From Nemertoderma westbladi (lineage: Eukaryota > Animalia > Xenacoelomorpha): DNA of 64,000 nucleotides. A model generated the notes under the pieces. That model saw nothing but the letters and a program-made list of their open reading frames with translations. It did not search any database and was not told where the DNA came from. The stretch lies in NCBI GenBank assembly GCA_032718475.1, contig JAUCBJ010007194.1, positions 53,027 through 117,026 of the forward strand, read 5' to 3'. A program made the position numbers and the translations under genes. This document shows positions 1,678 through 36,475 of the stretch, piece by piece. Every line of letters begins with the position of its first letter. Position 1 is the first letter of the stretch.

Positions 1678-3011
1678 ATGACGGAGTTGATAGAAGACGG
1701 TCTTGGTATCAGGGAGCGATATAATCTACTTTCAAGCGTTTGTTGATAGCTTGATAAGCGGTGATACTAGTCCAACTACTACGAAGGATGATGGTTGATG
1801 GTTGTTATATCGAACCTACGATTTCCTGGAAGTAACTTACGCGTGAATTGGACTATGGAAAATTCACCGCTCGCTACACGCATTGTAATGGTATGTATAT
1901 GGACTTCTTAACCATTGACCATTCTATCGGTTTACACGATACGGACTATGTCGAACATATCCTACCCAGAGGAGTCGAAACGATAAACCAAAATTCTAAT
2001 GCGAAAATCCTATTCGAAATCGACTCGAAAGAAAAGACATTAAAGAAACAAATAAACGCGGTAACTCCAACATATATTTGGAATTCTTGATAGAAGCATT
2101 GTAACAACAAATAAATATCATCCGCGTTTCCCCTACAAGACGTGCGTCTTTGGTATTATTACGATAAATGCCCTAGACCCAGCCAATAAACGGAAAGACA
2201 TAAACATCCACGGAAACGTTGTGTTAAACACAGTTGTGCTCGTTATATTTACTGGAGTTTCGAGCGAAACTTGTTTGACATACAACCTATGCTCACTCGG
2301 CTCGAACGATCCTGGAGTAAACCTACGATCAGAGTCCCGGAATACTCGGTCAAACCTCCTCATTCCTTAGTTGGACCTCAGACCTGCGATCCTGGTGGTG
2401 TCGCGGATCCTCGCGGACGGTATTCACTGTTCAAGATCTAGTGCTACCCTAACAATTAATCGGTAACACTCCGACAGTGATTTCTAGCTAGCCGCCCATC
2501 TTACCTAGCCGGATTATGACGCGGACACCTAATATCACTATCCAACCGTATGGTCGTCCCGTTTAACGCGATACAACCCTTCATCAAGGTGAAGGAGAGC
2601 GTTGTACGAAACGAGTTAAACGCTATTCTATAAAGATCAAAAAAGAAACCTGCGTTTGTTCAGATAAACGTAAGTTATAACAGTAAGTCCAATCGATAAA
2701 CGAATTGGCCTTATCTCAGTTCGATTGGGAAATCTCGAATCTCAAAGAAGATATCAAGCTTAGAAAACCCTATTCTCTGCGAGAGTTTTGGACGAACGTA
2801 TCCCATGACAAGCGGAGGAAAATCAGCTCGAGGAGAAGCATATCGAAATGGACGAGACACCGACCGTAAACCCAAACCTTCTAATGCAATCATATTGCAC
2901 CCTTCACCCAGGAGTTATGGCCCTCCTAGTAAAGTGGCTCCCCCCAAAGAGAAAAAGACTCTTGCTAGCCTCAAAAAACTGCGTAAACGCCGTCTGCGCA
3001 AGAAAGACTAA
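1678..3011 (+). pseudogene. Decayed extra 3' ORF of family 1 (unknown protein with a basic C-terminus)
   Basis: Begins ATG ACG GAG TTG ATA GAA GAC (MTELIED) and is homologous to the ORF pieces at 45498-47046(-). Ends ..LASLKKLRKRRLRKKD*. Contains frameshifts and stops. Confidence 0.55.
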
Positions 3012-3089
3012 CTGTTTAGAGTATCTTTATATTTTAGAAACTGTGATTTGTTATATTTTATAGACTTAAATCCCATTTTCTGGGAGCGG

Positions 3090-4320
3090 TGTAAAAGCTT
3101 TTGCGTAATTAGCCGGTTATTATCCCCGTAAAGTACTCTGTGGTTGGTTTACCAGGCATAAAAAGGCCGTGTCCTTGCTGTACTGGTGTTTTGGAGGACA
3201 TAAAAGCCATTTCTTCTGTATTTGTACTTTAGAGGACATAATCTGCAATTTCATGACGTAAAAAGCTCGATACTCTTGAAAACAGTGTCGCTACCATGAC
3301 GACGGCTAACGGCTGATATTGCCACGTTGCAGCTTTCTGTATCTGCCAATAGGATTTGAGTTGGTTTTGATTTCGACCTATCACAGATCTACTGAACTGA
3401 ATTTCCTATCTTTATGCTCATTCTCTGTGGTGGGTGGAAGCCTTTGTAAATAAGGTTATTCTTATCAGTGTTCAGTGTTATGTTTTTGCCCAGAGCCTAA
3501 GAACCGGCTTTTGGCACCTCCGTGTTTCAGTCTTTAGTCTTACATTAGTAGGCTCAATTATAGAACGTATATCTGTTATCTTAATTATCTTAACTTCTTA
3601 ACCACTCACGAGTTACACAAGTTAACTCATTCACTTAATAATCATTTATACATTAATATTACTGCTTTTACTGTCGGTCATTCATTATATTGGTTGATGA
3701 AATATTATATCGGAATACTGATCAATAGTCAGACACCCCACCTTCTTGATATACTAAAGGTTAGAGAGACCGGTTACAGATAAACGATTGCGACCTGTGT
3801 TGAGTGGTTTGAAGTGAATCTAATGCTATTTCATATGCCCAACATAAATTGTCTGTTGCTCTCTTTATACGTGACCAAATTTAGTGAAGGTCGGCAGATT
3901 AGTGTGCAGTATTGTGCAGCATTGTGTATGAGTGTAACTGATAACAAAACATCTCCTAAAGAATGTGCCATATACGTGAATCTATAGCCTTTTCGTTGTG
4001 ACTAGTTTAAGTCATAACTCTGTTTATATAGATAGAGCGCCACGTCCTAAAGGAACTGTTAATATTTCCCGAAAGTGAATAATATTTGTCAGAGATTATA
4101 TATCACGATCAGTCGAATAATACAGTAGGCTTACACCATCAATCATTAAGCCCCGAACTCAGTCTCCCGGGTATATCCAACGGGTGAATGATTGCGCATA
4201 GACTGGCTTCGGCTAATGTAGTGTATCAAATACTCGTCATAGGCTAAAGACTATCTATCATCCAAAAGACATTCTAATTTTGGCAGGTTAAACTGTCAAA
4301 GGTCTTTAAAAGCGCAAACA
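3090..4320 (+). repeat. 3' LTR of family-1 copy 0 (~1.23 kb, TG...CA)
   Basis: TGTAAAAGC...GCGCAAACA. Homologous to the LTRs at 15729, 26717, 44249 and 59221. Confidence 0.93.
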
Positions 4321-7451: not shown

Positions 7452-10400
7452 TCAGTATCGCCTTGCGAGCCCCACCCCACGGATCCCAGCCCCATCCCCA
7501 AACCCTAACCCACGCCACGGACGCCGCCCACCACGGAGGCAGAGGGAGTTGGACCGGAGGAGTGCGAATTGCAGCCGCCGGCGAACACCCCCCAGCACGC
7601 ACGCGAGGCCCCTCTCCCGCATACCATCTCGCCTTGCCACGAGTGACTCTGCGAGATGGCGGATAAGGATCTGGGCCTCGGTGCACCAGACACCGTCAGT
7701 GGTGCCGACCAGGGGGGTGAAGGCCATTCTCCGGTCCTCGCAGACGGTGCTGTAGTGGCGTTTCTTATGCCGGCACCGCTCCTCAAGCAGTGACTCGGTC
7801 GAACGGTTGGCCTGGGCATACGAGGTGGCGTCAGCGTTAATTAACGAAATATCAAACGACGCCACCCATTGATTGGCCCTGACCCCCCGAGCAACCAAGT
7901 CAGCTCGCACTCCCCCTACTGCCCAGCCATCACGGTCCAAATGACCTTGGGCAAGGGTCACCTCTCGTTCCACGCTCGATGGCCCAACCACCGAGGCCAA
8001 CAACTCTCCAAAGACCTCTCGCACCTCATCATGGCGCTTAATGATCAGCCCGCCAGACTTGCAGCTCAGTGCGTGTGAGGTGGAGAAAGACTCCCCACAA
8101 CCCTCGCACTTTGCTGGAAGACCTGGCGGGTCAAGGCCATAACGGAGAGCCAGGTTGTCCCTGAACTAATCCGGGCTGAGGTCCGTATGATCAAGGGCTG
8201 ATGGCTGGGCCGTCAACCAACCCCCAGTCTTGTTATTAACGGTTCGTTCCACCGTTCGCCGATGTCTTGTTGGGAGTGCCACCACTGCAACCTCCTGCTT
8301 CTCCTTGTACAGGATGTCCTGGGCAATGCGGCTCTCCTTTAGGACCTCTGATAGCTGAGCGTTGTGGTCGGGGACGTTGAGGGACAGTCCCGAAAGGTTA
8401 CAATCGATGTCCCGCGGGTAGATGTGTCCCGAGCTGGGCCCTTCCGCATCAGCGGGTCCCGCAGACCGACTCCTCCATGCTGCGCCGGGAGGAGAACGAG
8501 ATCCTCGTCGGCCTCGTTCAGGCGGGTTCCGAAGAGCGCAGGGATGTAGGTCTGCAGCAGCGCCGTCCGGATAGGGGCGATCTCACTGTCCTCCGTAGGA
8601 ACAACCCGAAGGAGGTAGTCCCATTCGGCCTGAACACACCGGGACATCCCGGTGTGCGCGGTCTGGGGGTACACTTTGCCCACCTCTGCGAGTTTCCCAA
8701 CATTCGACACCCAGCCAGACACCTTTTTGGCTACGAACTGTTTCCTCCCCGACGCTGCCCCGATATAATCACCCAGGAAACGCTGACCGGAAACAACCTG
8801 GATCCCCCATGGCCCGAACATCGCACGAGCCTCGACTTCGAACTCAGGTTTTACCACCAGGAAACTCTTGGGTGCCTCTGGGTTATAGCCTATCTTAGGG
8901 CCCTCCTGGCAGAGTTCGCGCCACCAGCACCACACCCCGTACAGAGTGCCAGCCGACGAGGCATCGTCGGCATACCAGCACTGGCGCTGTGATGGGGGGC
9001 TAGGTGATGTAGATGGCTGGGGGCCGGGGTCCGGTGGCGGACCGTGGGGTGGCGACGGCTGTGGGCCGGGGTCAGGTGGCAGACTGCAAGATAGCGGCAT
9101 CTGGTGGCCGCGGTCCGGTGGCAGACCGTGTGGTGGCGATGGTTGAGAACCCGGGAAAGGTGGCAGACAGTGAGGAGGAGCCGGTTGAGAACCGGTGTCA
9201 GATTGGAGACTGCGATGTGGCGACGGTTGGGAACCGGTGTCCAGTGGCAGACCGCGTGGTGGCGACGGTTGAGAACCCGGGACGGGTGGCAGACCGTGCA
9301 GTGGCGACGGTTGAGAACCGGGGTCAGATGGCAGACTGCGAGGTGGCGACGGTTGAGTACCCGGGTCAGGTGGCTGACTGCGATGTGGCGACGGTTGGGA
9401 ACCAGTGTCCGGTGGCAGACCGTGCAGTGGCGACGGTTGAGAACTGGTGTCCGGTGTCACACCGTGTAGTGGCGACGGTTGAGAACCGAGGTCAGGAGGC
9501 AGACTGTGAGGTGGCGACGATTGACCCCGAGTCCCGTGCAGCAGTGGAGACAGAGCACTGGGGGTGTGCAAACCTGGGTCTTGAACAGCCCGCAACCTCC
9601 TGATCATGGGGAGAACTCCACACCCATAGCCTAGCATAGCAGCTGGATCCCCCTGGGTCCACCCTTCCTGGCTCCACAATGGCTGGTCGCTGCCGTCGAG
9701 GAAGAGAGCCGCGTGGCCATTATATGAATTGAACAGGAAGCGCGAGGCACGATGCCAAAGAACACGGCAGTTCCAGAGTGCAACAGGGCGACTGATGCTA
9801 TTAAAGGCGTTGCGAGCATCGACAAGCAACATCGCCTCGGTCCCGTTTTCCTCAAAAATTGAGGACATGGCGTGAATGGCCCCTTCAATCCCGGCTTTGA
9901 CACCGGCACACAATTGGTCTGCCCCGCACTCTTTGGAGATATCCGCCTTCGTTTTCAACGTGGTGCAGTTGGAAAGGAGACGATATAGCACCTCACCAAC
10001 CCCAATGGGGCGGACACCGGGCTCCTTGTCGAGTGCAACAAGCCGACAGGCCCGTAGGGCCCTAATCTCACCCCATGGGACAATGGTGTTAGCGAGGCGG
10101 CGACATAGTCCAGCAACGGCTTCACGGAGGCGAGAGCTGTGCGCCTCATAGCGTGTGAGGATTGCGTGCCAGAATTCGGCGTCCCCGCCGATGGGACCGG
10201 CACTACCACAGAGTTTCCTGGCAACCTTTAAAACAGTCTGTCCTGTAACATCCAGGCCCTCAAGGGGAGGGAGTTCGTTGCAGGGTTCGAGAGAGTCTGG
10301 GGAGGTGGGCATCTGAGGCGGGTGTTTCAGCAGGAGGACATCCCGAACCGTCACACCCTGTGGCTGACCCTCCGCCTGTGCGTTGGGGTCAAGGACACCC

Positions 10401-11281
10401 CCGCAGTCCCGCTCAGTTACCATCCGAACTGCGGCCCGGTTCATGCCAGCGAGAATTTTTCGGTTGAACGACCGAGCCAAGTCCGGTGGGGGTAGGTGAT
10501 CACCAGACGGGAACTTTGTGTTGCAACGTGTGGCCTCGTTTATTAGAGTATCGAACTCACCACGCTCCCACATGTCTATTCGACGCAGAATCGTCCGCCT
10601 GATATCCGGAGTGTTGACCACGTCTTTATCTCGTTGGAAGATGGTAGCGATAAAGCAGAGGGGGCGCTCGGATGGGTGCGCCCCCTCCGTCAGGTTGTCC
10701 AACTCCCTTGTGAGGATGTCGACCACCTTGCGCCCCACGTTACCGCCAGGAACAATGTAGCGACGGCTTGGTAGAAGAGCAAGACGTGCATGGCGAGCCT
10801 CCCAAACCGGATCGGTAGATGAGCCTGGAGAGTTTACCCAGGCACCCCCAAATGCGTCTTCCAGCATCCCTGAAATAGCAGAGGTGGTTGCGCTCGTGGT
10901 TTCATCGATTAAGGAGGGGCTTATAGCCGTAACACCGCTTGGGGAAAACATGAGCGATCTGAGTGGACGCACAGTACTGGCGGTTGAGGTGGAGTCATTG
11001 TCCGAATCGCTGCTGGTACTCGGGGAAAGTTCGTCGAATACGTTAGAGCAAACAACCCCGGTCACTTCGGCTTGCACCGCTGTAGAACGGGCGGGAATAG
11101 AAGAAGCCCTAAAGGGGTTTCGGCAGCCCCCAGAGTCGAGTTTGATGCAGTTCCGACACGGACGCTCCGCCCGGACACAGCCGCATTGTCCACCCCTAAA
11201 GCCACCACCGTGGGGGGTGCGTGGGGCGCACTCACGGGCCACGCAATTACAACAACGTTGCGACCCTTGAGACATCACCAA
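7452..11281 (-). mobile_element. CRE-clade non-LTR retrotransposon (RT plus restriction-like endonuclease), near full length but disrupted
   Basis: N-terminal Cys cluster. RT motifs RLVALDK..GVRPIGVGE, LLVDARNAFNS, QGDP and WYADD. C-terminal CxxC..HALSC..RH knuckle and RADL..FD..KKRHY..FTPLV RLE motifs. Frameshift near 8390 and stop near 8166. Confidence 0.9.
8990..9545 (-). repeat. 42-bp coding minisatellite (~12-13 units, PPDPGSQPSPPHGL-like) inside the CRE RT domain
   Basis: Repeated GGTGGCAGACCGTG..GTGGCGACGGTTGAGAACC unit, in frame between QGDP and YADD. Confidence 0.92.
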
Positions 11282-11504
11282 GGATATTATTATAACAACA
11301 AGATCCCAAATAATTGTTACATTTATTGGGCAGTTTAATATGGCGCCAGGCAGTCTGGCAGTTCATCGGGTGCAGTACAGCAGTATTATACAGCAGTAGT
11401 ACAGCAGTATCCAATGTAATGTTCTCAATTGAACCTCAATACATTGGTTGATAATTCTTTCAATTTTTCAAAACTTTCCTTGTATCCTGTAAGAATCTCC
11501 TTTA

Positions 11505-11700
11505 ATTAAATAATTGAACGAAACCATAAGAAGTCAGTAGATCGATATAGGAAGATGAATCAGTGTTCGGTTGAAGTAGGTTAAAGTTCATATCACCAGT
11601 TATAATGATGTCAAGGTTATTTTTAGAAAGGTTAGAAAGGTTGAGTCCAGTACTGTTAGAAATTCAACGTGAGCTACAGAGTCGGGGCGATAGATTTTGT
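11505..11700 (-). pseudogene. APE endonuclease fragment of a LINE, probably the upstream part of 6747-7258
   Basis: Reads IYRPDS..IIITGDMNFNLL..DLLTSYGFVQL. Confidence 0.65.
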
Positions 11701-11763
11701 CGACAAGCCGGTACAGCATTCTTAAATATGCAGGTGCAATGCAGCATGCCGATCGTCGTAGTA
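11694..11763 (+). mobile_element. Short RTE 3'-end fragment
   Basis: Matches 48052-48120 (GACAAGCCGG..GCAGCATGCCGATC..TAGTAG tail). Confidence 0.75.
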
Positions 11764-12184
11764 GGCACTTAATACGGCATACACCATGTCCGAGAATAAG
11801 TGTTATACAAATTTTAATGAGATTGCATGAAATTTGAAACAGAGTTAGTTTCATCTCCCTCCTCCTTACTGGGTGAGTCTAGAACATATTTTTGCTTTCA
11901 TTCTTTAGCTACAAGGGTTTGAAAAAGGTGTCTCAGGCGATATTACACCAGTTACACCGCTGTTATTCTTGAATTTTATAGTGATTTGTTCGTAGCAATA
12001 GAATGCAATAGAAAGGATAAATTGCATGATAGATAATAAAGTGTCAATATTATACCACAGTACGGGGTCGCACTGTGAAACACCCTGATTACTTTTATTA
12101 AACCTATAAACTAATTAGTTATTTTTTCGCGACATTTCCAGTAGCGAAGGGGGGGGGGGGGGGGGGGGGGGGGTTTGTGAATAT

Positions 12185-13281
12185 TGTTGCCGTTATTCCC
12201 AACACCAGGGGGGAAAACGCCGATGCTGGAGGCGGAATTTTCAGACCACTTTATCCCGGCCAGTCACCGGATATTGGGAGTGGAGAAGGATGTTATCTGA
12301 GATGAAAGATTGCAGGTAGAGAAAAAGTTTCATTGGTAGGATATAATCTTTAATGTAACTTGAACCCTGATTGAATCTTGTTCAATACCATAATGAACCT
12401 TTATTGAGAATAATTTGGGCTTCCCCACACCAATATACCAAATATTCACAATAATACACAAATATAAATTCCTAAAGTAAATGATTTAATTACCCACTGT
12501 TCGCTTTCAGATTTTGACCTAACTAATGTTCCCCATTTTCCCTCGGTGCTAGTCCGGTACAGTAGTGTCAGTGTCGGTCGATCCTTCGCATGTCCATCCC
12601 ACCCTTCCCGAACCCTGACGGGATCGGTCATCAGGAAAGCAGTACGGCTTAGCTAGGGGTCTGTCAGTTCATGGCAGGGTCCCAACCACCAAAGCTTTTC
12701 GAATCCTTTTCAGGCTCGTAATCGCATCGGTAGCCGAGAAGCTGCTCTGAATAGTCAGTAGGTCAGTAGAATCCGGTTTTCTGTCTTTCGACCCTGTCGC
12801 ATGGCCGTCCCACCCTTCCTGAACCCTAGCGGGTTCGGTCATCAGGTAAGCGGTACGGCTTAGCTAGGGGTCTGTCGGCCCGTTGTGAGTCCCAACTGTC
12901 GGAGATTTCCGAGTCCCTTTCAGGCTCGTACTAACGCCAGTCGTGGAACCCACGCCAGGAAGTCTACTACTAGGATCGGCATGCTGCATTGCAGCTGCAT
13001 TTTTAAGAATGCTGTGCCGGCTTATCGACAAAATTGCACCGCCACAACTCCCTGTCACCCATGACATTTGCTCATGACACCCATGACAGGAAGTCAGTCC
13101 TCGTCGAACCCTTCCTTTCTGTCCGGTCAGTCGATCCTTCGCAAGTCCCCAATGCGAAGACTCCGGCCGAGTCCCTTTCAGGCTCAGTCGTAGCCAACGC
13201 ACCAGGAACCGCTTAGGATCTGTCAGTTCCCGTCGCAAATCCCCGGCGCAACCAGCTAAGCTTTCCGAATCCTTTTCAGGC
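12185..13281 (-). repeat. 3' LTR of D (U3 end and PPT deleted; contains ~200-bp tandem units)
   Basis: 12185-12388 and 12925-13281 match 36476-36909. Homology stops at 13281. Confidence 0.85.
12965..13086 (-). mobile_element. Short RTE 3'-end insertion in the D LTR
   Basis: Reverse complement of ~48010-48120. Flanked by duplicated CAGGAAGTC, which is single-copy in the other LTR at ~36714. Confidence 0.85.
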
Positions 13282-13354
13282 GTTTGGGAGGCGTTTGGGA
13301 ACGAGAAGTATCCGCTCCGCACGCCATTTCATGTGCGACGTTTCGGGCACTCAG

Positions 13355-15212
13355 TCACGCTCTAGTCTTTACGTGTGCGTTGGCGTACGTCTCGAACATA
13401 ACCATGTTCCCGGTAGCCGTAACGTCCTTGGTGGGACATTTGATGTTGCACCGAGGGCTCGCAGTATGCCCACGGAAACCGCACGTTGTACAGACGTTAT
13501 AGAGTGTCAGGCAAACCGCTACGTCATGGCCCGGGGTAGCGCAATATGGACAATAGAGTATCCCAAGGATTTAGAAGCAGCGTTCGGTAACTCGTTGTTT
13601 CTTAAGAAGTCTCTGAAGTCTCTTAAGGAGTCTCTGAAGAAGATTGGGATCTGTACGCCGGCATAGTATTCCAGACGTCTATCCTTTTTCGGGATAATTG
13701 TCGTAACCGGGAGCCCGCGGAAGGCTGTGCTGTTGCGGAGTTGGGCCTCGTTTCGGTATCCTTCTTTATGGTCCGCTGGATGCATCTCGGGTGCCCGTTT
13801 CTGACGGTATATCCACTCCATCTGTTCCGCGTACCATCGGGTGAGTCTCATTGGGTCTTGAGGAATGGTGGGAGCCGTCGCAACAGCCGGTCGGTCAAGG
13901 GGTGCTGGAATATTCGCTGAGGGAATCCTGAGGAGGTCTCCGGGTGTTGGTGGTATACTAGGACCCTTCGCGACTTGAATAGCTGATAGGGTCCGCTGTG
14001 TACTGGTACTTGGGGTTTCCGAAGACCAACCCTCTCCTCCAGGAAACGGGTATGGAGACAACCTCTTGCATGCATCGCCGAAGTCACTAAGCGCAAAGGC
14101 GGGAACTAGCTCTCTCGCCGGACTACCGGAGCCAAGCGGAGTAGCCGGCTTCCGTCGCAGGCTCAGCCACGGCAATACGCTTAGCAGCCGATCCGTAGGC
14201 AACTTCCGGTTCGAGTTGACGTTTTGGGGTGGATAGCAGAATGCCTTCTTGTTTCCATAACTCCTCCCCTTCCGACGATACCATAGGTTCCTCTGCGCCA
14301 AGGAGATGGGTAATTGTGGGGATATCGAATGGTCCGTGCAGATCCCAGGATTCGATAACGGCGAGCGTCTTGGCGTCTCCCGGTGGGATATTCTTCACCG
14401 CCTTGAATGCGTGGTCGATCACCTCGTTCCATTCGTAGTCTATGAAGGACCTTGGGACCGCGCTAATAAGTTTATCGAGGGTTTTACAGATAAAGTTGGC
14501 AACCGTAGTCGTTAGCATTAGCGTAGTCGTTCCGGATATACGCTTTTATATCCGACCCAATCTTGATAATATCGAAGTCGAACAAGACCTGTTGGATCAC
14601 CAATGGTAGTAGCCAGACCGCCCCAGCTGTCCGTAGTTCCTGTTGGGGTGTCGGGAAGATTCGACATATCAATACCAATCCGTCTAGGGTTCCGAGGACA
14701 ACGATTAGCGACCGACCATACTCCTTCATCCCGTATTTCTCTTTATAGTCGTCTCGGTTTTGGATGACTGTCATACGTTCCTCTCGCAGCGTCGCCGTAC
14801 ATTCCGCCAGGTTTCCCCACTGTGCGAGATAGGTACTCTTGTCGTCGATGAAACTATGACATTGCACCATTGTAACCGCCTTCGGAGTCGGCGTCGCATT
14901 GCCCTCGTTGTCGTATATTAGGCACCGGGATTTGTAAACGCTTCGCCGGAACGTATCCCAGAACGACAACTCTTCTCCTCTGATTGCCTCAGCGTTCCGA
15001 GTCCCTTTCAGGCTCGTACTTGCCTCGAACAACCGGAGCGCCTGCACGTTACGGGTATCCGGGGCCTCCCTCCCGGAGAAACGAATGACTCGCACATTCT
15101 CCTTCAACAGGGCATTCCATTTCGCATCAAAACTAGGAGATCCAGGTTGTGGATAGTCTAATGAATCAATTGTATTACTTAATTTGCCAAGAATCTGGCG
15201 ATTCGGGTCCAT
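13355..15212 (-). pseudogene. Extra 3' ORF of D: DEDDy-like 3'-5' exonuclease domain plus tandem CCHC zinc knuckles (frameshifted)
   Basis: Shows LIYDNEG (ExoI DxE), LIVVLGTLDGLVLICRI, LPLVIQQVLFDFDIIKIGSDI and YIRND (YxxxD). CPYCATPGHDVAVC and CTTCGFRGHTASPRC lie at 13552-13448, in a frame absent from the ORF track. The family call is by motif recognition only. Confidence 0.65.
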
Positions 15213-15728
15213 ATTGTAAATTATGTCCGTTACAAATTAAATCAGTTAATTATAAATCCAGAAAGTCTGATTCTATAGCGACTGCAGAATAGTTATTTTT
15301 AATGTAGTTAATATTATTGCTATATAGGCATCTATCATCTTATTGCAACTACATTCAGTATTTACAGTTACTATAGCTATACATTATTATCCAACCAGAT
15401 TTTTGACTTTTTATGTCCGCTTCTTTTTCAAATTCTTTTTCCATTCTACATTTTATACTTTTTTTTGTCTTTTTTATTTCTATAGTTTATACATTTCATA
15501 TTTCATTTCATTTCTTTCATATTTCATCATGTATTCCACATTATATCATTTATTCCATCATTACATCATTTATTACACATTTCATTGGGGTTATAGCCCA
15601 CCGGCTATCATCATTGGGTTATAAGCGCAAAGCATCAGGAATGCGCATCATCACATTTTCATCATCATCATAATACGCGTCATCATTCAGTTTATAGTGA
15701 GTTATCTGTTCCTTTTCATCATTACTTA

Positions 15729-16917
15729 TGTTCGCGCTTTCAGACCTTTGGCAGTTTAACCCGCCAAATTAGGATGTCTTCTAGATAATAAATCGCTTTA
15801 GCCTCTAACAAGTATTTGATTCACTACACTAGTTGAAACCAATCTGTGCGCGATCATTCACCCGTTGGATATACCCGGGAGATTGATTTCGACAGCTTAA
15901 TCGTATTGCTATGTAAGCCTAATGTATTATTCGACTGACAGTATTATATAATCTCTGACAATATTATTCACCTTCGGGAAATATTAACAGTTCCTTTAGG
16001 ACGTGGCGCTCTATCTATATAAACAGAGTTATGACTTAAACTACTCACAACGGTATGGCTTAGTTACAATTCACATATTTGGCGCATTCTTTAGGAAATG
16101 CTTCGTTATCAGTCTCACTCATACACAATGCTGCACAATACTGCACACTAATCTGCCGATCTTCACTGATTTTAGTCACATATAAAAGGAACACAGACCG
16201 ACTCATGTAGGGTCTATCAAATAACATTAAATTCACTTCAAACCACTTTAACATAAGTCACAATTGTTATATGTAACCTTTCTCTCTTACCTTCGGTATA
16301 TCAAGAATATTGGGTTTCGGGGTTATTTCTCGTTATTCCAAATATAATAATTCATCAACAAATATAATGAATAACCGACAGCAAAGCAGTAATGTTAAGT
16401 TAAGTTGCACAGTATGGGCCAGTTAACCAGTGTTAACCAGTGCAGATAACATTGAGTTACCCAGATAACGGATATATGTCCTTATAATTAAGCCTACTAG
16501 TGTAAGGCTAAAGCAGAAAAGCACAAAATACTCCAAAGCCGTTCTTCCTTGGCTCAGGACTGAATGATAACACTGCCCATAATGCATTACGTGATTTCTC
16601 GGAAATTTCTGTACAAGAGCCATAAAAATGCTCTGATTGGCTGACTGAACTAAGAGAGAACAAAGAAACAAAGAAATGTTCTACGTGGCAATATCAGCTG
16701 TTAGCCGTCGTCATGGTAGCGACACTGTTTTCAAGAGTATCCAGCTATTGCGTCACGAAATACGGATTATGTCCTTTAAAGTACACATACAGAAGCAATG
16801 GCTTTTATGTCCTCTAAAACACCAGTACAGTAAAGACACGGCCTTTTTATGCCTGGTAAACCAACTACAGAGTACTTTAAGGGAAAATAACCGGCTAATT
16901 ACGCAAAAGCTTTTACA
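15729..16917 (-). repeat. 3' LTR of A
   Basis: Near-identical to 26717-27906. Preceded on the minus strand by the PPT TGGGAGCGG. Confidence 0.96.
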
Positions 16918-16995
16918 CCGCTCCCAGAAAATGGGATTTAAGTCTATAAAATATAACAAATCACAGTTTCTAAAATATAAAGATACTCTAAACAG

Positions 16996-18324
16996 TTAGT
17001 CTTTCTTACGCAGACGGCGTTTACGCAGTTTTTTGAGGCTAGCAAGAGTCTTTTTCTCTTTGGGGGGAGCCACTTTACTAGGAGGGCCATAACTCCTGGG
17101 TAAAGGGTGCAATACAATTGCATTAGAAGGTTTGGGTTTACGGTCGGAGCCTCGTCCATTTCGATATGCTTCTCCTCGAGCTGATTTTCCTCCGCTTGTC
17201 ATGGGATACGTTCGTCCAAAACTCTCGCAGAGAATAGGGTTTTCTAAGCTTGATATCTTCTTAGAGATTCGAGATTTCCCAATCGAACTGAGATAAGGCC
17301 AATTCGTTTATCGATTGGACTTACTGTTATAACTTACGTTTATCTGAACAAACGCAGGTTTCTTTTTTGATCTTTATAGAATAGCGTTTAACTCGTTTCG
17401 TACAACGCTCTCCTTCACCTTGATGAAGGGTTGTATCGCGTTAAACGGGGACGACCATACGGTTGGATAGTGATATTAGGTGTCCGCGTCACAATCCGGC
17501 TAGGTAAGATGGGCGGCTAGCTAGAAATCACTGTCGGAGTGTTACCGATTAATTGTTAGGGTAGCACTAGATCTTTGAACAGTGAATACAGTCCGCGAGG
17601 ATCCGCGACACCACCAGGATCGCAGGTCTGAGGTCCAACTAAGGAATGAGGAGGTTTGACCGAGTATTCCGGGACTCTGATCGTAGGTTTACTCCAGGAT
17701 CGTTCGAGCCGAGTGAGCATAGGTGATACGTCAAACAAGTTTCGCTCGAAACTCCAGTAAATATAACGAGCACAACTGTGTTTAACACAACGTTTCCGTG
17801 GATGTTTATGTCTTTCCGTTTATTGGCTGGGTCTAGGGCATTTATCGTAATAATACCAAAGACGCACGTCTGGTAGGGGAAACGCGGATGATATTTATTT
17901 GTTGTTACAATGCTTCTATCAAGAATTCCAAATATATGTTGGAGTTACCGCGTTTATTTGTTTCTTTAATGTCTTTTCTTTCGAGTCGATTTCGAATAGG
18001 ATTTTCGCATTAGAATTTTGGTTTATCGTTTCGACTCCTCTGGGTAGGATATGTTCGACATAGTCCGTATCGTGTAAATCGATAGAATGGCCAATGGTTA
18101 AGAAGTCCATATACATACCATTACAATGCGTGTAGCGAGCGGTGAATTTTCCATAGTCCAATTCACGCGTAAGTTACTTCCAGGAAATCGTAGGTTCGAT
18201 ATAACGACCATCATCCTTCGTAGTAGTTGGACTAGTATCACCGCGTATCAAGCTATCAACAAACGCTTGAAAGTAGAGTATATCGCTCCCTGATACCAAG
18301 ACCATCTTCTATCAACTCCGTCAT
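16996..18324 (-). pseudogene. Decayed extra 3' ORF of family 1 in copy A
   Basis: Same MTELIED...KKLRKRRLRKKD pieces as in copies 0, B and C. Confidence 0.55.
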
Positions 18325-19986
18325 ATCTGCTATATATGAGTTTATTAATATTATAATGAGTTTATATTTAGGCTAGCGAGCGTCGCTGCCTACCCCAATC
18401 AGCCCCCGGACAGTGCGAGATCCTCAGCGCCGATGTGTCGTCGCCGCTGTACTTTCGCCAACGACGTAGCCGCACAACGACAACGACAACCGGCACAAGT
18501 CACTCGACTGTCCGTCCCAAAGGCTTAGATACACCTCAGGTTCTTACTGGAGAGTTAGGGTTACTTTCACAATTGCGACTCGCTACTGTAAACACACCTT
18601 AGTAGTAACATTCGCCTATAAACTCACAAATACCACACACACAACTTGTCACAAATTACACACACTCGGGCCATTTGTCCGTTAGTCAATGCCTTCCAGA
18701 ATGTCACTGTATTATTATGTATCCTTGGATACTAGCAGTGCGCTATTTATTCCCTATGCTATTCAATGGGACAAGCTTTCTATTGTTCTTTTAACTCAAT
18801 TCTAATTCTAGCGTGGTTGTTGCTATGGTGACATTATGCAAAGCTAGCGGTAGAATTAGGGTAATTCCAATGCATACAGATCTGGGATGTTATTTAATAG
18901 TAATTCTTTAATGGTCAATGTCCTGTTTTATACATGACTTTATGAATTTTATCGGCTATTGACTATGTTTGGGAGCCTTTCGCACACTCATACGCATAAT
19001 AAGATAAATCTCCGCTCCCTTGATCTATTAATTAATGGAATTTTGGGAATGTTATAAATTGCGTAAAAATGGCAATTTATTAAATTCATTAAAAGGCATG
19101 AATTTAAATTTATTCCCTGAAATTTTATTATTTGATAATTAAATTGACATATTTTGATTCTAGAACATGTCTGGGGACACAAGATCCTTAATTCTATGAA
19201 AATTGTCTTTTTAAGAATATCGGTAAATGCTACGATATCTTAATTGACTAGAATTGTTGAAGGATCTGAATTTTACAGATTTTGATTTATTAGATTTGCA
19301 AATATTAAATAATTAATATTTGAGATGGGCACCGATTTATTCCAGAACTTGTCTGGGGACGTTAACCACTGATTCTAGAATTTGTCTTTCAAGTATATCG
19401 GTGGGTGCCGCGATATCTTAATCGACTAGAATTACAGATGGTCAAAGGGTTTAACAGATTTATTTTGCGTTATACGCTACTGTTAAAGGGACATCACGCT
19501 ACTATATGTATTATTTAATATACGGTATGAGAGCAATATCGCACGAAGCAATGTCAGTGTGAAGAGGCAAGTCGTTTCCAAGGTCTACCCAGAGCTTGGT
19601 TTAGCCGAGACACGAGGATCTGAACTTTGCATTCCTAATACTCTGCCTACCAATAATACTTGAATATAGTAGTGGCTTTATTGTACTTTAATAAGTACGG
19701 ATATTTCATCTTTACTGTAGTCACGTATTTATAATATGATACGGACAGTAAGGAAAGAGAAAAAGAATTATTTCTCGCCGTCGCACTAAATATATATTAT
19801 ACGTAATTACGTACGTAATAAACGCGAATATATTGCACTAATCTACTAAATGATCGCTAAAATAACATTCTACTGAATAAAATTAAAGAAAACGATTATA
19901 ATAAAATTATATAGTAATACATACAGAAATATAAAAATAATAAAATAATATAAAATAATAGAGTCACACACCCACTCCATATGTTG

Positions 19987-22900
19987 TTACGTTATGGAGT
20001 CCCTAGATGTTTGAAGGATTAGGGAGGTGGTCGTGGGAAGAGAATCTTGCCTTCCACAGTTTCCGGAGAGTCCTCCATTCCCTTCCGGTAAACACAAACG
20101 ACCGACTGGGTGATTGAGTCGCTGCATCCCGAATACGATTCCAGGTTTCCTCTTCGTCCTGGAATAGTGACGATAGAAACATCGCTCTAAGTACACGACG
20201 GCCTTACAAAGCCGATTCCAGGAGCTATAGTGGTCCGTCGCTCCCTGCAGGAGAGGTGAGAGTCCCTGCGAGACGTCTGATGTTCCAGAGCTCCAATCGC
20301 TCCCTCTGATCTTCATGAAGGATCCACTCGCGGTGGGGAGGTCCAGATCCACGGCGTCGTCCCTGGCAATATGTAATACCGACAGATCTATCCCGGGTTC
20401 AAATAACTCCGCTCCACCCGTCCGGGTTTTAGGTTTAACTTTCTCCGCTCCCTTGGCTGGTCTAATCTCAGTCGGAGTAAGATGGGGAGGCCATTCATCC
20501 TCCTTACTCAGGAAGTCGGGTTCACCTAACCGGTCTGTAGTATCTGTCAGTTCTTGAGGAGTTGCTCCTCTGGAAGCGATGTCAGTTGGATTAAACTTCT
20601 TGGGGCAATATCTCCATTGATCTACATTGGAGCTAATATCGTCATTATCTGAGGAGTATGGTGTTCCCTCAGTTGGGTCGTCTCCCTCACTAGTATCATC
20701 TTCCCATTCACTCACCTGGCGGACGCGATCTTGAAGCAGTCTTTCTCTGAGCGTTCTTCGGGAAGGTCCAGTAAGGTACCAACCTACTCTAGTTCTTACC
20801 GCATAGGTCTGAAGTGGTTGCGGTTGAGCAGGTCGTTTCTCCAATGTCTCCAGCGCCTCATGCGCGTTTTGACTGATTAATATTTGTACTCCAGGATAAT
20901 CGGTGTCGAATCTAGGGATGTTAAGTTGTTGGGCATGATCATCTTCGTCCCAATTATAAGGTTCCACTTGGGTGGTAGCGAAGTTCTTTATTGCCACCAT
21001 TTTGACTGACCTTATACTGTATTCTCCTAGTTTATCCTGTGGAGTGGACAACTCACCTATATAATAGTCGGCAGCTACAGTAGAATTCCAAACCTGCATG
21101 ATCCCTGACATGTTTAGCTTGGTTCGGAACTTGGGTTGTCCAGCAAAGATGACTTCGGCTAGTTCTTTATCGATGAATGTTCCTGTGCTACCGGAGTCCA
21201 GGAGGGCGTTCACTATATAGCTCTTCTGAGGTCCGTGGACCCGTAACTGGACTACAGGAAATTCTCGGATTCCTATATTGGAAGTTGGCGCTTTCCAAGA
21301 TGGTTGTTGATCAGAAGTAGTTAAGGTAAGGTCGCTGTCTGTGTCTTTCTCATGCACGAGTGCTCGATACACTGCGGTGGTGTTTATTAGGTAACAGGAT
21401 TCGTTTTGGTCGGAGAACTCGTCCGTATAGAATCCTTCCATCTCAGATTGATCAGTGTCGTTCACATCACTGAATTGGACATGTAGTTCGGACTCACTTA
21501 CCAGACTCGGGCTGTTTCGTTCGAATTCCGTGTGCAACAAAATATGATGTTTTGCGCCGCACTTTGCACACCTTGCGTCGGAGTAACAGGTTCGCCGTTG
21601 GTGTCCTCGTCTGAGGCAATTATAACACAACCGCTTATCCCACATGACTTCACGTCTATCCTTTAGTGATTTCCTCAGGAATTTATCACACGCATTTAAA
21701 CGGTGGGGCCCGTCGCACAGCACACATTTCGGCTTGATGTTACTTACTTTAACCTGTGCTATGTGGTGCACACTTGTTCTTTCCTCGGGCTTTCTCACCT
21801 GAATTCTTTTAGGAGACGTAGGAGGGGTTTTTTGTACCGGTTCCCTTCTGTCATTGGGTCGAGACTTGGATTTACTTACCTGGTCTTTAGGCGTTTTATT
21901 GACATAATAAGATCTTTCAGTGTCTTTCCCGCTGTCCTCTCCTTGAGAGGTTTGGCTTTCGCCGTCGTCTGTATAACACATTGGTGTTACCCTTCTCTTA
22001 GAAACGGGTTTCTCACTTACCTTGTTTTCCAATGTCTTCTCTCTGGACTGCCTTAGGAGCTGTAATTTCACTTCTCTATCTAAGAATGACATGAGATCAG
22101 TCATGGTAGGGTCTCGTCGTTGTTGTTCCATCATATATAACACTTTCTTATCCCAGCGTGTACCTACTCCACCCTTCGGTAAAGTAGAAGCCACTGCTCT
22201 AATAACCATAGCACTCTGATACTCATGAGACTTACCTAGCCAATCTAATTGTCTGCAGATCTCCTGAATTTCATCGGAAAACTCTATAATCCCGTTGCTA
22301 ATAAACTTTCGGGGCGCTACCAACTTTGCATACAAATACCCAGCTATTTTATTCCTATTACCATACCTGATGTTTAGTGTATCCCAAACTTGTCTTAATC
22401 CGTCTGGATGTCCAATAAACTTTAACGCCATTAACTTGGGAGATCCTTCCAAGCACTCAATGAGGAATCTAAGTTTCTCTCCATTAGATAGTACAGAGTT
22501 CTGTATGTTATCTTTGTAATATTCATTAAAAGGTAACCATTTCATCTCATCTCCATTGAACTTGACGATCTCTCCCACCTTTACCGCTTGCCGGGCTTCG
22601 GTTCTAGCCATTTGACGCGTAAAACTTTCTTGGGCCATCGTGTTATTTAATATCGAGTTATCAGTATATAAATTTCTCGGATTATGATCCGTTCTATATG
22701 GAATATCCTTATCAACAGGTCTATAATTACCCTTAATAGGGTTCACTATAGGAGTTTCTACTTCGCTAGCAGTATAGATGCGTGTAGGCTCCACACCTTG
22801 CGCATGCGATACTTCAGACCTAACAGGTTGACACATTGTTACAGAGGGTGGTGGTATACTCTTTTGTGTATTTACTAATTTATCGCGTTCTAGCGCGATA

Positions 22901-24441
22901 CTTTGCTGCACTTCTTGCAACTCTAGCCTACTTTCCCTTACTGTGCCTTTGAATTGTTGAACAGTCTCCTGCATCTGCCCGAGCAGGAGATCCATCCCCC
23001 GCCGTCTCTCGTCCACCCATTCGACTGCCGAAACGGGAGTCGCCAACGTTGTAGCGGGCGGACGAGGGACAACGGGCGACAAATCATGAATATTTCGCTC
23101 GGGGTCCAGGACCTGAACTGTCTCCTGGGCAGTTCTACGGGGCACAGGTAGCTTAGTGCTATGCAGAGGGAATTTAGAGGTAGTTTCAGGGAGCACAGGT
23201 GTGTCTATCACCGAAGGGGTGATTTCAAGAACAGGCCTAATTATTTCAGGCTCATCTACTATAGTAGGGAGTCTTTCTATTTTAATTGTTTGGTCTGTGG
23301 GTTCTGTACTACCTAAGTTGGTGTTATTTAGTTGCCTTCTAACAGCTGGAGGCAAATCAGGCAATTTCTGACGGTGGAATGTTCTTTTACGTCTGCTTAG
23401 ACGAGATATATTTCCTTTGCCTTCAGTATCGGTGGTATCGCCTTCCTCAGATGATGTATATCCCTGTCTTTTGGGAGTAGATCGATTCATCATCTGCATA
23501 TTACTAGCTGCTAACTGTTTATTTATGCAGTCTTGATTCTCCTGAATGTTTTCCAATTCTAATTGGGTGGTTTCTTCAGCCGCTTTCCGTTCTGCTTCTG
23601 CCACTTTTGCCTCTGCCGCTGCCTCTGCCGCTGCCTCTGCTGCTTTTGCCTCTGCCGCTGCCTCTGCCGCTGCCTCTGCCGCTTTTGCCTTGGCCGCTGC
23701 CTCTGCCGCTTTTGCCTTGACCGCTGCCGCCTTTCTTTCTGCTTCTGCAGCTACCACTGCTGCTTTCTTTCTGTCTTCTATGCGTTTTTTCTTTACTTGT
23801 TCTTCTTGGACTCGTGTGATGCGGAGTTGTTCATCAAATTTAGCCTGGTTCGCAGCCCTCATATCCACATCGATGGCATCCAACACAAGCTTGGTTCCTT
23901 CACTATTAGGGCTAAGTCCCTCTAACCTTCTCCTCAACTCGTCATCACCTAAAAAACGTTGATAGTCTGACAGATAGATGTCAATGGCATCCCTCTTATG
24001 CGGTTTCTCTGCTGTCACTTCGCTTTCTTCTTGAGAAGAAGTGGCGTCGGTTGATTCTTCATAGGTTGGCCGCTCATCATAAACCTTATCCACCATCTTC
24101 GCTCCGCGTTCGGGCGTCCGCTCAACAGTATCTGAACTACTGGAGCTATCAGGCCGTTGAGAAGTAAGTTCTTGGCTCGCGGGTTGTTGAGGTTCCGCTG
24201 CTTCTTGGTCCCGCTTGACCTGAGCTCGAGTGCCTATGATAGACCTACGATGTTGGACTAGCCTAGGGTCTGAGATTACTACAGTAGGGATGGCCTTTCT
24301 TACAGCAGGAGGTGACTTCGACTTGGATCTAGGATGTTCTATACTTTGATCTTGGTCACAGATCTTTTTAAGGCACTGTCTAACAGTCATTCTAACACTT
24401 TCTATGAGACTATCTGACAGTGTTTGTCGTGAGTCAGACAT
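19987..24441 (-). CDS. Bel/Pao Gag-protease ORF (1484 aa) fused in frame to residual pol fragments
   Basis: Ala/Glu/Lys coiled coil, capsid-like FNGDEMKWLPF..EKLRFLIECLEG, triple knuckles (CVLCDGPH, CYNCLRRGH, CAKCGAKHH) and protease ALLDSGS. Then WRYCP..NPTDIASRG and the pol C-terminus. No YxDD or integrase core. Confidence 0.93.
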   Translation of the reverse strand: MSDSRQTLSDSLIESVRMTVRQCLKKICDQDQSIEHPRSKSKSPPAVRKAIPTVVISDPRLVQHRRSIIGTRAQVKRDQEAAEPQQPASQELTSQRPDSSSSSDTVERTPERGAKMVDKVYDERPTYEESTDATSSQEESEVTAEKPHKRDAIDIYLSDYQRFLGDDELRRRLEGLSPNSEGTKLVLDAIDVDMRAANQAKFDEQLRITRVQEEQVKKKRIEDRKKAAVVAAEAERKAAAVKAKAAEAAAKAKAAEAAAEAAAEAKAAEAAAEAAAEAKVAEAERKAAEETTQLELENIQENQDCINKQLAASNMQMMNRSTPKRQGYTSSEEGDTTDTEGKGNISRLSRRKRTFHRQKLPDLPPAVRRQLNNTNLGSTEPTDQTIKIERLPTIVDEPEIIRPVLEITPSVIDTPVLPETTSKFPLHSTKLPVPRRTAQETVQVLDPERNIHDLSPVVPRPPATTLATPVSAVEWVDERRRGMDLLLGQMQETVQQFKGTVRESRLELQEVQQSIALERDKLVNTQKSIPPPSVTMCQPVRSEVSHAQGVEPTRIYTASEVETPIVNPIKGNYRPVDKDIPYRTDHNPRNLYTDNSILNNTMAQESFTRQMARTEARQAVKVGEIVKFNGDEMKWLPFNEYYKDNIQNSVLSNGEKLRFLIECLEGSPKLMALKFIGHPDGLRQVWDTLNIRYGNRNKIAGYLYAKLVAPRKFISNGIIEFSDEIQEICRQLDWLGKSHEYQSAMVIRAVASTLPKGGVGTRWDKKVLYMMEQQRRDPTMTDLMSFLDREVKLQLLRQSREKTLENKVSEKPVSKRRVTPMCYTDDGESQTSQGEDSGKDTERSYYVNKTPKDQVSKSKSRPNDRREPVQKTPPTSPKRIQVRKPEERTSVHHIAQVKVSNIKPKCVLCDGPHRLNACDKFLRKSLKDRREVMWDKRLCYNCLRRGHQRRTCYSDARCAKCGAKHHILLHTEFERNSPSLVSESELHVQFSDVNDTDQSEMEGFYTDEFSDQNESCYLINTTAVYRALVHEKDTDSDLTLTTSDQQPSWKAPTSNIGIREFPVVQLRVHGPQKSYIVNALLDSGSTGTFIDKELAEVIFAGQPKFRTKLNMSGIMQVWNSTVAADYYIGELSTPQDKLGEYSIRSVKMVAIKNFATTQVEPYNWDEDDHAQQLNIPRFDTDYPGVQILISQNAHEALETLEKRPAQPQPLQTYAVRTRVGWYLTGPSRRTLRERLLQDRVRQVSEWEDDTSEGDDPTEGTPYSSDNDDISSNVDQWRYCPKKFNPTDIASRGATPQELTDTTDRLGEPDFLSKEDEWPPHLTPTEIRPAKGAEKVKPKTRTGGAELFEPGIDLSVLHIARDDAVDLDLPTASGSFMKIRGSDWSSGTSDVSQGLSPLLQGATDHYSSWNRLCKAVVYLERCFYRHYSRTKRKPGIVFGMQRLNHPVGRLCLPEGNGGLSGNCGRQDSLPTTTSLILQTSRDSIT

Positions 24442-25772
24442 GTTTGATTGTACAGTTGAATGCCTACTGCTATATTACAGTTAAAGCAAGTCTAGTAATT
24501 CAGTATCACTGTTAGCCTAGTAATTAATTACCGATACTGCTACTCAATGTAGCGTGATATATATAATATATTAGAATACCGGTATGTTTATAGTATATAT
24601 AAGTATTATTACAGACTAGGTTTGTTACAGAATACCGGTATAATTTTAGCACAAATATATAAATATATAATAGGCCTATCGTGAATACCGGTATACAGCC
24701 TACTTATAGTATATATAAGTATAATTCTGGACTAGAATTAATTGCAGAGTACCGGTATGATTTCAGCCTAAATTTATAGAAATAAAGATAATAGGCCTAT
24801 CGTAAATACCGGTATGTCAATTATTTTAAATAATTGAATTTCTGAATTTTTTAAGGGTTACTTGGTTACTTTACTTACTTTATTACCGTTATTTGAGCGG
24901 TAGTCCAACTGATATTGAGACCTAATGGTTGTATGGTAGGCCTACTATTTATAAATTGTTAGATTTGATTTATAATATATATATACCCGTTTTAATAGGT
25001 TTTGTCAATGTTTGAAATAAATGTTATTATTTCTGGGGAGTAATCACTACACAAAGCGGTGCGCTTTCAGTGAAGTGTTACTTATAGGACACTAAAACAA
25101 ATAATGCTAATTTACCTAAGTTACTTAATACTACAAATTACGTACAATTCGGGTGAGATTACAATCTCTAAATAAACACAAAAATTTACAAAAACACAAA
25201 ATACGAATTTTCAGGGTAATTTTACAAGAAGTCTACAAACCAGCCTAACAAAGGGTTAGTATCTGGTTATTACAACGGACAGGGTACTGCGGTAGGTATT
25301 TGAAAATAATACGTAGTAGTGAATACACTGCGTTGTCCAGATAGGAAAATACCACCGCCTGACGACCTATAGCCGTATCGTATATACTTAGGTATATACG
25401 GTACTACGTTATGTATCATGGAGTGTTCCTACCTAGAAGTTAATAGAGCTAATCGAACGTGCCTATCAACCACTTTACAACACAAATATAATGTCTACCC
25501 TAATTACTTTCGGAAAGCACTGTACACTAAACCCTAAATTAGGTACGAGTACTTGTACAACATATAATCAGTAGTTAAATATACTTGAACAGCTAAAAGA
25601 ACCACGGCATCTGCTGGAGTGACCGGTGCACAAAATCACCAGTCTTTACCTACGCCAAGCAGCCCGTGTAGTACCGGGGTTAATTTAACTATAGCGGTAT
25701 GTATAACAAACACAATTATTGTAGGAACAAACTTGGGGAATGAATGTTGCGAATAATCGCATAAACTCTGAA

Positions 25773-26345
25773 TAATAAATATTACGCTACCCGTACAAAC
25801 CACTCAAACAAAATGCAGACCAAATACTGACAGACTACTATCAAGCCTAAATAAACTATAGGACATGCAGACTCCGAAATGATTAGGTAGTATGCGTTCT
25901 AACCCAGTAGTACGACTTATTCTTTAGATGGGGGTTTACCTTACAGCTTTGGCTGCCCCTACTTCCTAACCGTTCTTTATCGGACAGAGGCTCTACACAC
26001 ACTGCAATCCGTTCAGACCTAATAACAGCCAGACAACTATCCAGCCTACAAATTATCTAAATAAATATTATACGCTACCTGTACAGACTACACAAACAAA
26101 GTACAGACTAAACGATGGCAGACTACTCTCAAGCCTAAATAAACTACAGGACATGCAGACTCCGAAATGATTAGGTAGTATGCGTTCTAACCCAGTAGTA
26201 CGACTTATTCTTTAGTTGGGGGTTTACCTTACAGCATTGGCTGCCCCTACTTCCTAACCGTTCTTTATCGGACAGGTGATCTACACACACTGCAATCCGT
26301 TCAGACTTAACAACAATCAGACAACAGCTCAGCCTACAAATTGTC
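25773..26345. repeat. ~288-bp tandem duplication in the 5' leader of A
   Basis: GGACATGCAGACTCCGAAATGATTAGG occurs at 25861 and 26149 with continuing identity. Confidence 0.9.
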
Positions 26346-26704: not shown

Positions 26705-26716
26705 TATATCCGTTAT
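26705..26716 (-). promoter_or_regulatory. Non-tRNA PBS-position sequence of A, complementary to its own LTR
   Basis: Sense ATAACGGATATA abuts the 5' LTR and is the reverse complement of the sense LTR 12-mer at 27453-27464. Confidence 0.7.
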
Positions 26717-27906: not shown

Positions 27907-27949
27907 ACTTACTACATTCAACCATCTTCTTGGGAAATTTTCGTTGTGG

Positions 27950-36473: not shown

Positions 36474-36475
36474 TT

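Follow-up and report, generated by a model that had tools for sequence, protein, structure and literature searches.

A stretch of 64,000 nucleotides from the genome of Nemertoderma westbladi (assembly GCA_032718475.1, contig JAUCBJ010007194.1, positions 53,027 to 117,026 of the forward strand; hereafter the window, in whose own numbering all positions are given) carries, at 15212-13355 of its minus strand, one gene spread over four reading-frame pieces. This is a real, selected gene of a multi-copy repeat family. Our favoured interpretation, held with modest confidence, makes it the damaged member of a family of extra genes, repeated and maintained by selection, that have two CCHC zinc knuckles near the C-terminus and probably lie in the 3' ('env') position of a Bel/Pao retrotransposon; the product would be a nucleic-acid-binding accessory protein, not a recognisable exonuclease.

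The gene is made up of overlapping stop-to-stop frames of 250, 140, 291 and 71 residues, within minus-strand 15236-13355, and the open pieces to be joined are 15212-14487, 14545-14126, 14394-13522 and 13570-13358. These pieces occupy three phases, the second and fourth sharing one, and therefore at least three frame changes are needed to read through them. Piece 1 (14487-15212, minus strand; 242 residues) begins with an ATG at 15212, within the 250-residue frame 15236-14484 that holds IYDNEG, IVVLGTLDGLVLICRI, LPLVIQQVLFDFDIIKIGSDI and YIRND. It includes D101-N-E103, a hydrophobic, hairpin-like stretch at residues 168-186, and IKIGSDIKAYIRNDY; its residues 234-242 are junction sequence private to the present copy. 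Piece 2 (14126-14494, minus strand) is that part of the 140-residue frame 14545-14126 which the present copy has in common with others. Piece 3 (13571-14150, minus strand), the likely coding part of frame 14394-13522, is proline-rich and then basic, and piece 4 (13358-13570, minus strand), in the phase of piece 2, contains the two knuckles. Frames of 250 and 291 residues are open on the minus strand only, the plus-strand frames being short. Upstream of the ATG lies an A-rich spacer (15213-15728, minus strand), which is cut at 15728 by a nested element and which is included in copies of the family, one X5 contig covering 14514-15384. A simple Kyte-Doolittle hydropathy scan of pieces 1-4 detected neither an envelope-type signal peptide nor a C-terminal membrane span or anchor; the sole hydrophobic 19-mer (value 2.11) lies inside piece 1 (residues 168-186), and pieces 2-4 have none.

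The evidence for selection comes from contigs of the public runs X1-X3 (two studies, one organism), aligned to the window at a likeness of at least 80%. Short, diverged contigs align along 13316-15384, and on 13300-14560 there are 297 (X1), 290 (X2) and 285 (X3) contigs, the majority of them less than 95% identical. Variant sites were listed as the 40 best-supported of 791 and the 40 best-supported of 109, and 76 of the listed sites lie inside the gene. Third codon positions of the locally open phase account for 48 of these 76 (p 1e-7), the contigs of a repeat family being non-independent samples. By piece, the listed sites at position 3 number 25 of 38 (p 4e-5), 6 of 10, 10 of 18 and 7 of 10, and in every region more sites fall on position 3 of the locally open phase than of either other phase. 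In piece 1 the listed sites comprise 24 synonymous and 14 non-synonymous changes; none in piece 2 is at codon position 2; and in piece 3 each of the other two phases has 4 at position 3. Altogether, 47 of the 76 listed sites are synonymous; in the absence of constraint a share of about 0.28-0.29 would be expected (p 3e-8 when tested against 0.31). Which strand is coding cannot be read from the periodicity by itself and follows from the long open frames. The periodicity tracks the phase changes of the present copy, as a once-continuous frame with later indels in the copy or subfamily predicts. The excess of silent sites in the locally open phases demonstrates an ancestral gene that read in a single uninterrupted frame, about 650 codons long or longer.

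The present copy is broken by the three phase changes, by a junction at 14495-14513 and by a stop codon that most other copies do not have. The junction (minus strand) falls at the change from phase 1 to phase 2, directly behind YIRNDYANA. Coming from above, 7 contigs of other copies in each of X2 and X3 diverge from the window sequence at 14514; coming from below, 1 in X1 and 2 in X2 diverge at 14494, and two X5 contigs end their match at 14513/14514; 14495-14513 is therefore a private deletion or rearrangement junction. The stop is the TGA at 13357-13355, behind which 32 open codons extend to a TAG at 13258-13256 (13256-13357, minus strand). At 13357 another letter takes 215.6 of a depth of 269.2 in X1, 140 of 208.8 in X2 and 226.2 of 267 in X3. 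The open tail behind the TGA is basic, and its end at 13256 falls within the LTR (long terminal repeat). Piece 3 contains a 21-bp tandem duplication at 13600-13639, and the depth of other copies falls at 13601-13643. Among indels with a share of at least 50%, there is only one, of a single base at 14449, in 1-2 contigs per run; since these short contigs stop close to the phase changes, the individual frameshift sites are not placeable. An earlier note on this DNA had reported an extra sense-strand ORF (open reading frame) with tandem zinc knuckles, at least three frameshifts and a probable deletion. The strings and the knuckle pair that it quoted are all present on the minus strand, exactly where it had put them; the ORF is confirmed and now has the support of selection, the phases of the four pieces bear out the count of frame changes, and the ends of the other-copy contigs place the junction where the deletion had been suspected.

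At two further places, 13573 and 13354, all depth in all three runs carries a letter that differs from the window, which may reflect a strain difference or an assembly error. The depth at 13573 probably includes a near-identical contig, 13547-13788, which shows a single difference; with the alternative letter at 13573, the phase of piece 4 has one stop fewer.

The two knuckles lie on the minus strand, the first, CPYCATPGHDVAVC, at 13552-13511 and the second, CTTCGFRGHTASPRC, at 13492-13448. The first has the form CX2CX4HX4C, an exact match to the retroviral-type spacing, and the second the form CX2CX4HX5C. There are 9 knuckles in the window, as compared with a mean of 0.05 (maximum 1) in 100 shuffles, and the remaining 7 are all within Bel/Pao gag frames. 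Such knuckles bind single-stranded nucleic acid in Gag nucleocapsids and in the ORF1 proteins of non-LTR elements.

To which element the gene belongs is a separate question. The window is a stack of Bel/Pao elements on the minus strand, and the candidate host is element C (called D in the earlier note), whose gag-pol occupies 29402-35741 in several broken frames. The Pfam domains of C are DUF1759, Peptidase_A17, Integrase_H2C2 and DUF5641, the last represented by its positions 2-43 and, in frame 29704-29402, by positions 46-94 of 94; pol is complete through the end of this domain and has its stop codon at 29402. The presence in 35741-29402 of the DUF1759 of gag, the Pao peptidase A17, the integrase and the DUF5641 tail identifies C as Bel/Pao. 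Between its pol and the gene lies a nested Bel/Pao element, B (15729-27906, minus strand; Pfam match to DUF1759), which consists of a 3' copy of a long repeat, X, at 20149-15729, an internal part at 25770-20150 from which the reverse transcriptase (RT) is deleted, and a truncated 5' copy of X at 27906-26717. Repeat X ends sharply at ...GCGCGAACA in four of four copies, each with a different flank. As a consequence of this sharp end at 15729, the gene was rejected as a part of B.

Directly behind the gene lies the likely 3' LTR of C, referred to as S (12177-13293, minus strand; both ends uncertain), with tandem units of about 105-210 bp (12572-12930) and an AATAAA at 12405-12400. Its counterpart, the likely 5' LTR S (36920-36445, minus strand), is without 537 bp that are present in the 3' copy. 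Three segments match between the two copies, namely 12180-12388 with 36471-36679 (96.2%), 12926-12964 with 36684-36722 (94.9%) and 13079-13281 with 36706-36908 (96.1%); the copies have the same orientation and differ by the 537-bp indel and a 109-bp insertion. Within the window, 36471-36920, upstream of the C gag, has a single partner, 12180-13293, and C has no other LTR candidate there. A TGG-starting site that resembles a primer-binding site (PBS) is found at 36444-36423 (minus strand), 26 nt behind the end of the homology, and this 22-mer has no second copy in the window. The idea that S is a mere fragment hit by the insertion of C was rejected, there being only 26 nt from the end of S to the PBS-like site. 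At the end of the LTR homology there is a run of 25 C (minus strand, 12149-12173), in place of which the other LTR copy has 14 unrelated bases.

Two further observations connect the gene with C and with S. The GC content of third codon positions is 0.57-0.61 in the gene, 0.51-0.61 in the pol pieces of C and 0.42-0.43 in the pol frames of A and B; being near the top of the C pieces and above A and B, the value was counted for the gene belonging to C. In addition, an identical 26-base motif is found in the gene, at 15020-14995, and in an S tandem unit, at 12932-12907, which ties gene and S together. The motif is exact within the N-terminal coding part even though the S units are only about 80% alike, and the identity could have come about by gene conversion or by the copying of an S unit into the gene. 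Word depth shows a rise at 14887-15033 too.

Taken together, we consider it probable that the gene sits behind pol of an S-type Bel/Pao element. The minus-strand order of that element would be LTR S, the PBS-like site, gag-pol at 35741-29402, a minisatellite spacer at 29401-27907, the A-rich spacer at 15728-15213, the gene, and LTR S again. Since the two X copies of B are 99.2% identical over 1190 bp and the S pair 96%, B is the younger element; it would have been inserted later into the spacer, and a deletion would then have taken the outer 3.2 kb of its 5' repeat. The protein might be made from a subgenomic or spliced RNA, by analogy with the 3' genes of such elements. To judge from its motifs, its knuckles and basic tail would give it affinity for the element's single-stranded RNA or DNA, and it would act as a kind of chaperone or packaging factor, serving the handling of the element's RNA or cDNA.

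Several observations weigh against this interpretation. As to position, no target-site duplication was found at the S pair when matching flanks of 4-6 bp were sought, and no polypurine tract before 13293; element E, in the same window, unlike the S pair has a clean PBS, a polypurine tract and a 5-bp duplication, ATGTT. The ends of S are not sharply defined, being blurred by the tandem units, and further degenerate repeat units lie upstream of 36920. The 5' repeat of B is cut at 27906, so that a deletion joined the two halves, which possibly derive from two different S-type elements, and word depth differs 10-fold between the S halves, contig depth being a poor measure. The earlier note's 'env' position is largely borne out: the S pair and the complete pol of C make a place between a Bel/Pao pol and a 3' LTR likely, and the duplication and the purine tract are lacking. 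In the window, blastn and tblastn found no second copy of the gene, elements A, B and E being without it, and pol and gene together are known from the present copy alone. As to function, we infer the binding of nucleic acid from the motifs alone, and the Pfam zinc-knuckle scores of piece 4 are under the curated cut-offs: zf-CCHC_4 is matched with E 0.034 and 14.2 bits (cut-off 27), and zf-CCHC_6 with 13.5 bits (cut-off 22). Short motifs often score under the Pfam cut-off.

The main rival explanation, which we regard as unlikely, is that the pieces are a gag-like, nucleocapsid-bearing gene from a non-autonomous, gag-only element that has LTR S in common with C, or else the ORF1 of another retroelement, and that this gene was joined to C by the deletion at 27906/27907. 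In the gag-only version, the protein would package the RNA of its element, with pol borrowed in trans. Two adjacent CCHC knuckles near the C-terminus are a hallmark of gag nucleocapsids, and all other knuckles of the window lie in gag frames, with two adjacent ones in the gag of E. Element E also shows that LTR-bearing, gag-only Bel/Pao derivatives exist in this genome. The S pair is without a target-site duplication, and the deletion is proven at the truncated 5' repeat of B. Set against this explanation is that neither DUF1759 nor any other capsid domain was detected in the pieces, and that no similarity to the gags of A, B, C and E was found (the best, E 0.82, involves the knuckles only). 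Furthermore, what lies beyond the nested element is the intact pol end of C, with no 5' S repeat, so that more events are required than in the nested model. The ORF1 version derives some support from a LINE (long interspersed nuclear element) RT frame downstream on the same strand (8339-11362), which we take to be of the type with a restriction-like endonuclease (REL); against it, about 2 kb of repeats lie between the gene and that frame, and the S copy at 36471-36920 precedes a gag, not a LINE ORF2.

A still less probable explanation is that the N-terminal half of the gene encodes a diverged DEDDy 3'-5' exonuclease domain (WRN/Rrp6/RNase D-like), possibly catalytically dead and fused to the RNA-binding knuckles, which would trim or hold RNA 3' ends. 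This identity had been proposed in the earlier note. It found no profile support in Pfam (E<=1), the PDB (E<=10), 1.84 billion representative proteins or a dedicated RNase D profile; that note had suggested a comparison with PF01612 and counted against its own proposal the lack of a profile or structure match to DnaQ-like exonucleases, and on the profile side no match to PF01612 or to other exonucleases was found. Specifically, neither PF01612 nor HRDC (PF00570) matches any piece at E<=1, and at that threshold pieces 1-3 match no Pfam family; NCBIfam and PHROGs gave nothing relevant. The PDB sequence search at E<=10 returned no DnaQ-like chain, with one noise match to an HIV gp120 chain (E 0.29). 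Among the 4 matches of phmmer in the 1.84 billion representatives (E 3.6e-6 to 5.2e-4) there is no exonuclease; they are long bacterial PKD/Ig/LRR-repeat proteins with 5-12 matching stretches each, and were rejected as compositional. In a BLASTP comparison with E. coli RNase D, the best match has E 2.9 and is out of motif register.

Because library-wide searches hide weak single-family signals, we carried out a targeted test with a hidden Markov model (HMM) of the RNase D exonuclease domain. It was constructed from PF01612 matches in 151 Pseudomonadota genomes (30 loci, 28 ORFs used; mean pairwise identity 0.48) and was run unfiltered; it represents bacterial RNase D only, without the eukaryotic WRN, Rrp6 and Mut-7. 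Piece 1 obtained no reportable score, though 1246 of 2000 of its own shuffles did, and piece 2 scored -2.6 bits, a value that 1231 of 2000 shuffles attained. Across the 51 frames of at least 25 residues on both strands of 13200-15300, the top score was 0.7 bits. As a positive control, the proofreading domain of E. coli PolA was found by the same HMM with 16.0 bits (E 4e-7).

What speaks for the exonuclease are leads, not support. By eye, residues 169-230 show a collinear likeness to the part of E. coli RNase D that extends from the second strand to ExoII: a hairpin-like stretch of the form LIxxL...DG..LxLI at 169-182, followed by PL..I..VL.D.DIIKIGSDI..YI.NDY at 203-230, as compared with PLKAILRDPSITKFLHAGSEDLEVFLNVFG in RNase D. 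The present copy breaks right behind this stretch, and the ExoIII region falls in the part that is deleted or rearranged here. DEDDy ORF3s are also known from rotifer LTR elements (PMC5408684). A D-N-E in the manner of the ExoI D-x-E is present at 101-103, but it stands 64 residues before the putative strand, versus 11 in E. coli RNase D. In the by-eye alignment the D is present in GSDI, and four residues of the ExoII motif are missing, including the H-A of the HAGSED motif of RNase D. Moreover, the rotifer ORF3s have 'strong homology' to DEDDy enzymes (PMC5408684), of which the present gene has none. A single-sequence AlphaFold2 model, there being no homologues to align, has a mean predicted local distance difference test score (pLDDT) of 31.1 and a predicted template modelling score (pTM) of 0.18, values too low to bear on an RNase H-like alpha/beta fold. 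The N-terminal half might be a module of the DEDD fold, too diverged for its sequence to be recognised and perhaps without catalytic activity, as in Maelstrom or EXD1, that a Bel/Pao element carries fused to CCHC knuckles; this seems to us improbable. If true, retrovirus-like elements would have captured an exonuclease-derived RNA-binding gene independently for a third time, here outside rotifers.

Searches for homologues of other kinds were likewise negative. Protein searches confirmed no relative of piece 1 among 1561 candidates and none of piece 3 among 881. The ESM Atlas gave no usable match to piece 1 or to residues 95-291 of piece 3, and none of 252, 48 and 13 pattern matches in metagenome contigs (pieces 1 and 3) and viral contigs (piece 1) was confirmed. 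These blank searches do not show novelty, as the libraries may not include the source organism. That there is no gene at all, and that the frames are chance openings in decayed repeat DNA, is very improbable: the lack of homologues and the 26-base motif common to piece 1 and the LTR tandem units would fit, and against them stand an excess of third-position and of synonymous sites, found in each of the four pieces and always in the open phase of that piece, the two perfect CCHC knuckles, and the 250- and 291-residue frames on the minus strand only.

With the reading as a knuckle-bearing accessory gene behind pol, one of the closest comparisons is with bdelloid rotifers, in which exonuclease ORF3s in LTR elements are already published: Juno, Vesta and Athena/Terminon elements carry ORF3s of the DEDDy type (PMC5408684). 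Like those of Juno and Vesta, the present gene would be an extra, non-envelope gene behind pol, without envelope-type transmembrane features, and a Cys/His zinc motif has been noted in ORFs of Vesta2 and Vesta5 (PMC5408684). Unlike the rotifer ORFs, which are strongly homologous to RNase D/WRN/Rrp6, it shows no such homology in any profile test, and its likely host is of the Bel/Pao type, whereas the rotifer hosts are Juno and Vesta. Bel/Pao elements are described (PMC8742986 and PMC3118150) as 4.2-10 kb long; their LTRs measure 0.2-1.2 kb, they contain between one and three genes, and a few carry an env-like gene of unknown function. As far as these descriptions go, the present gene resembles the env-like third genes of Belpaoviridae in its likely place between pol and the 3' LTR; it differs in that no signal peptide or C-terminal anchor is seen and in that nucleocapsid-type knuckles stand at its end. 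Our searches of open-access main texts found no Bel/Pao third gene with CCHC knuckles.

The end of the protein is like that of LTR-element gag nucleocapsids, with the CX2CX4HX4C form, a tandem pair as in element E and then a basic tail. Unlike the gags of A, B, C and E, however, the gene lies behind pol and has neither DUF1759 nor sequence similarity to them. The ORF1 proteins of non-LTR elements have a poorly conserved N-terminal domain and C-terminal CCHC knuckles, with a role as RNA-binding chaperones. The present protein shares this architecture, the N-terminal domain being poorly conserved and the knuckles C-terminal; unlike an ORF1, the gene runs into an LTR-like repeat and has no adjacent ORF2 within normal distance.

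The remaining features of the window are as follows. Repeat X, of about 4.4 kb, is found at 15729-20149, 44237-49952, 59221-62131 and 26717-27906, with an inverted copy at 1-4320, and flanks A (49953-59220) and B (20150-25770) on either side. If it is the LTR of A and B, its length exceeds by far the published 0.2-1.2 kb of Bel/Pao LTRs; no copy in the window shows its upstream boundary, and a tandem LTR-internal array is possible. Element E (39827-43654) is a young non-autonomous Bel/Pao derivative, with 270-bp LTRs that are 99.6% identical and the 5-bp duplication mentioned above; its PBS reads TGGCGCCCG..., and a tract of purines precedes its 3' LTR. Its only gene is a gag-only frame (DUF1759 twice) with an internal tandem duplication of 1.1 kb, 40607-41706 being repeated at 41720-42819 with 99.5% identity. 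The insertion in the 3' LTR S is a short repeat of about 109 bp (12964-13072, also at 48014-48121 and 11694-11764), the summed contig word depth of which, 1 to 1.7 million, is thousand-fold above its surroundings; its 17-bp flank at 12948-12964 is apparently repeated at 13079-13095. This repeat looks like a miniature inverted-repeat transposable element or a short interspersed nuclear element; tRNA and Rfam scans gave no match to it, nor to anything else in the window.

LINE-like frames occupy 7452-11362 on the minus strand: a 1007-residue frame with the YADD motif of reverse transcriptases, then a 237-residue frame with a Cys/His motif. The former has no Pfam RVT match even at E<=1 and is interrupted by proline-rich tandem repeats at 9004-9538; the latter presumably carries the restriction-like endonuclease motifs of R2/NeSL-type LINEs. 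Minisatellite arrays (27945-29215) closely follow the end of pol in C. One of them, at 28816-29187, is built of units of about 20 bp and has an inverted counterpart at 28467-28622; at 27945-28377 the repeats are about 70-100 bp long.

Extra genes behind pol show how retrovirus-like elements gain functions. Bel/Pao are the least studied of such elements, and their third genes are described only as 'env-like, function unknown' (PMC8742986). The gene analysed here would be a third gene of a different kind, one that lacks envelope features, has nucleocapsid-type knuckles at its end, shows clear purifying selection and has no relatives in the very large protein collections searched. Should a location behind pol be confirmed, it would be a tractable orphan accessory protein, and its partner RNA and the fold of its N-terminal part would tell what a second nucleic-acid-binding protein adds to the element.

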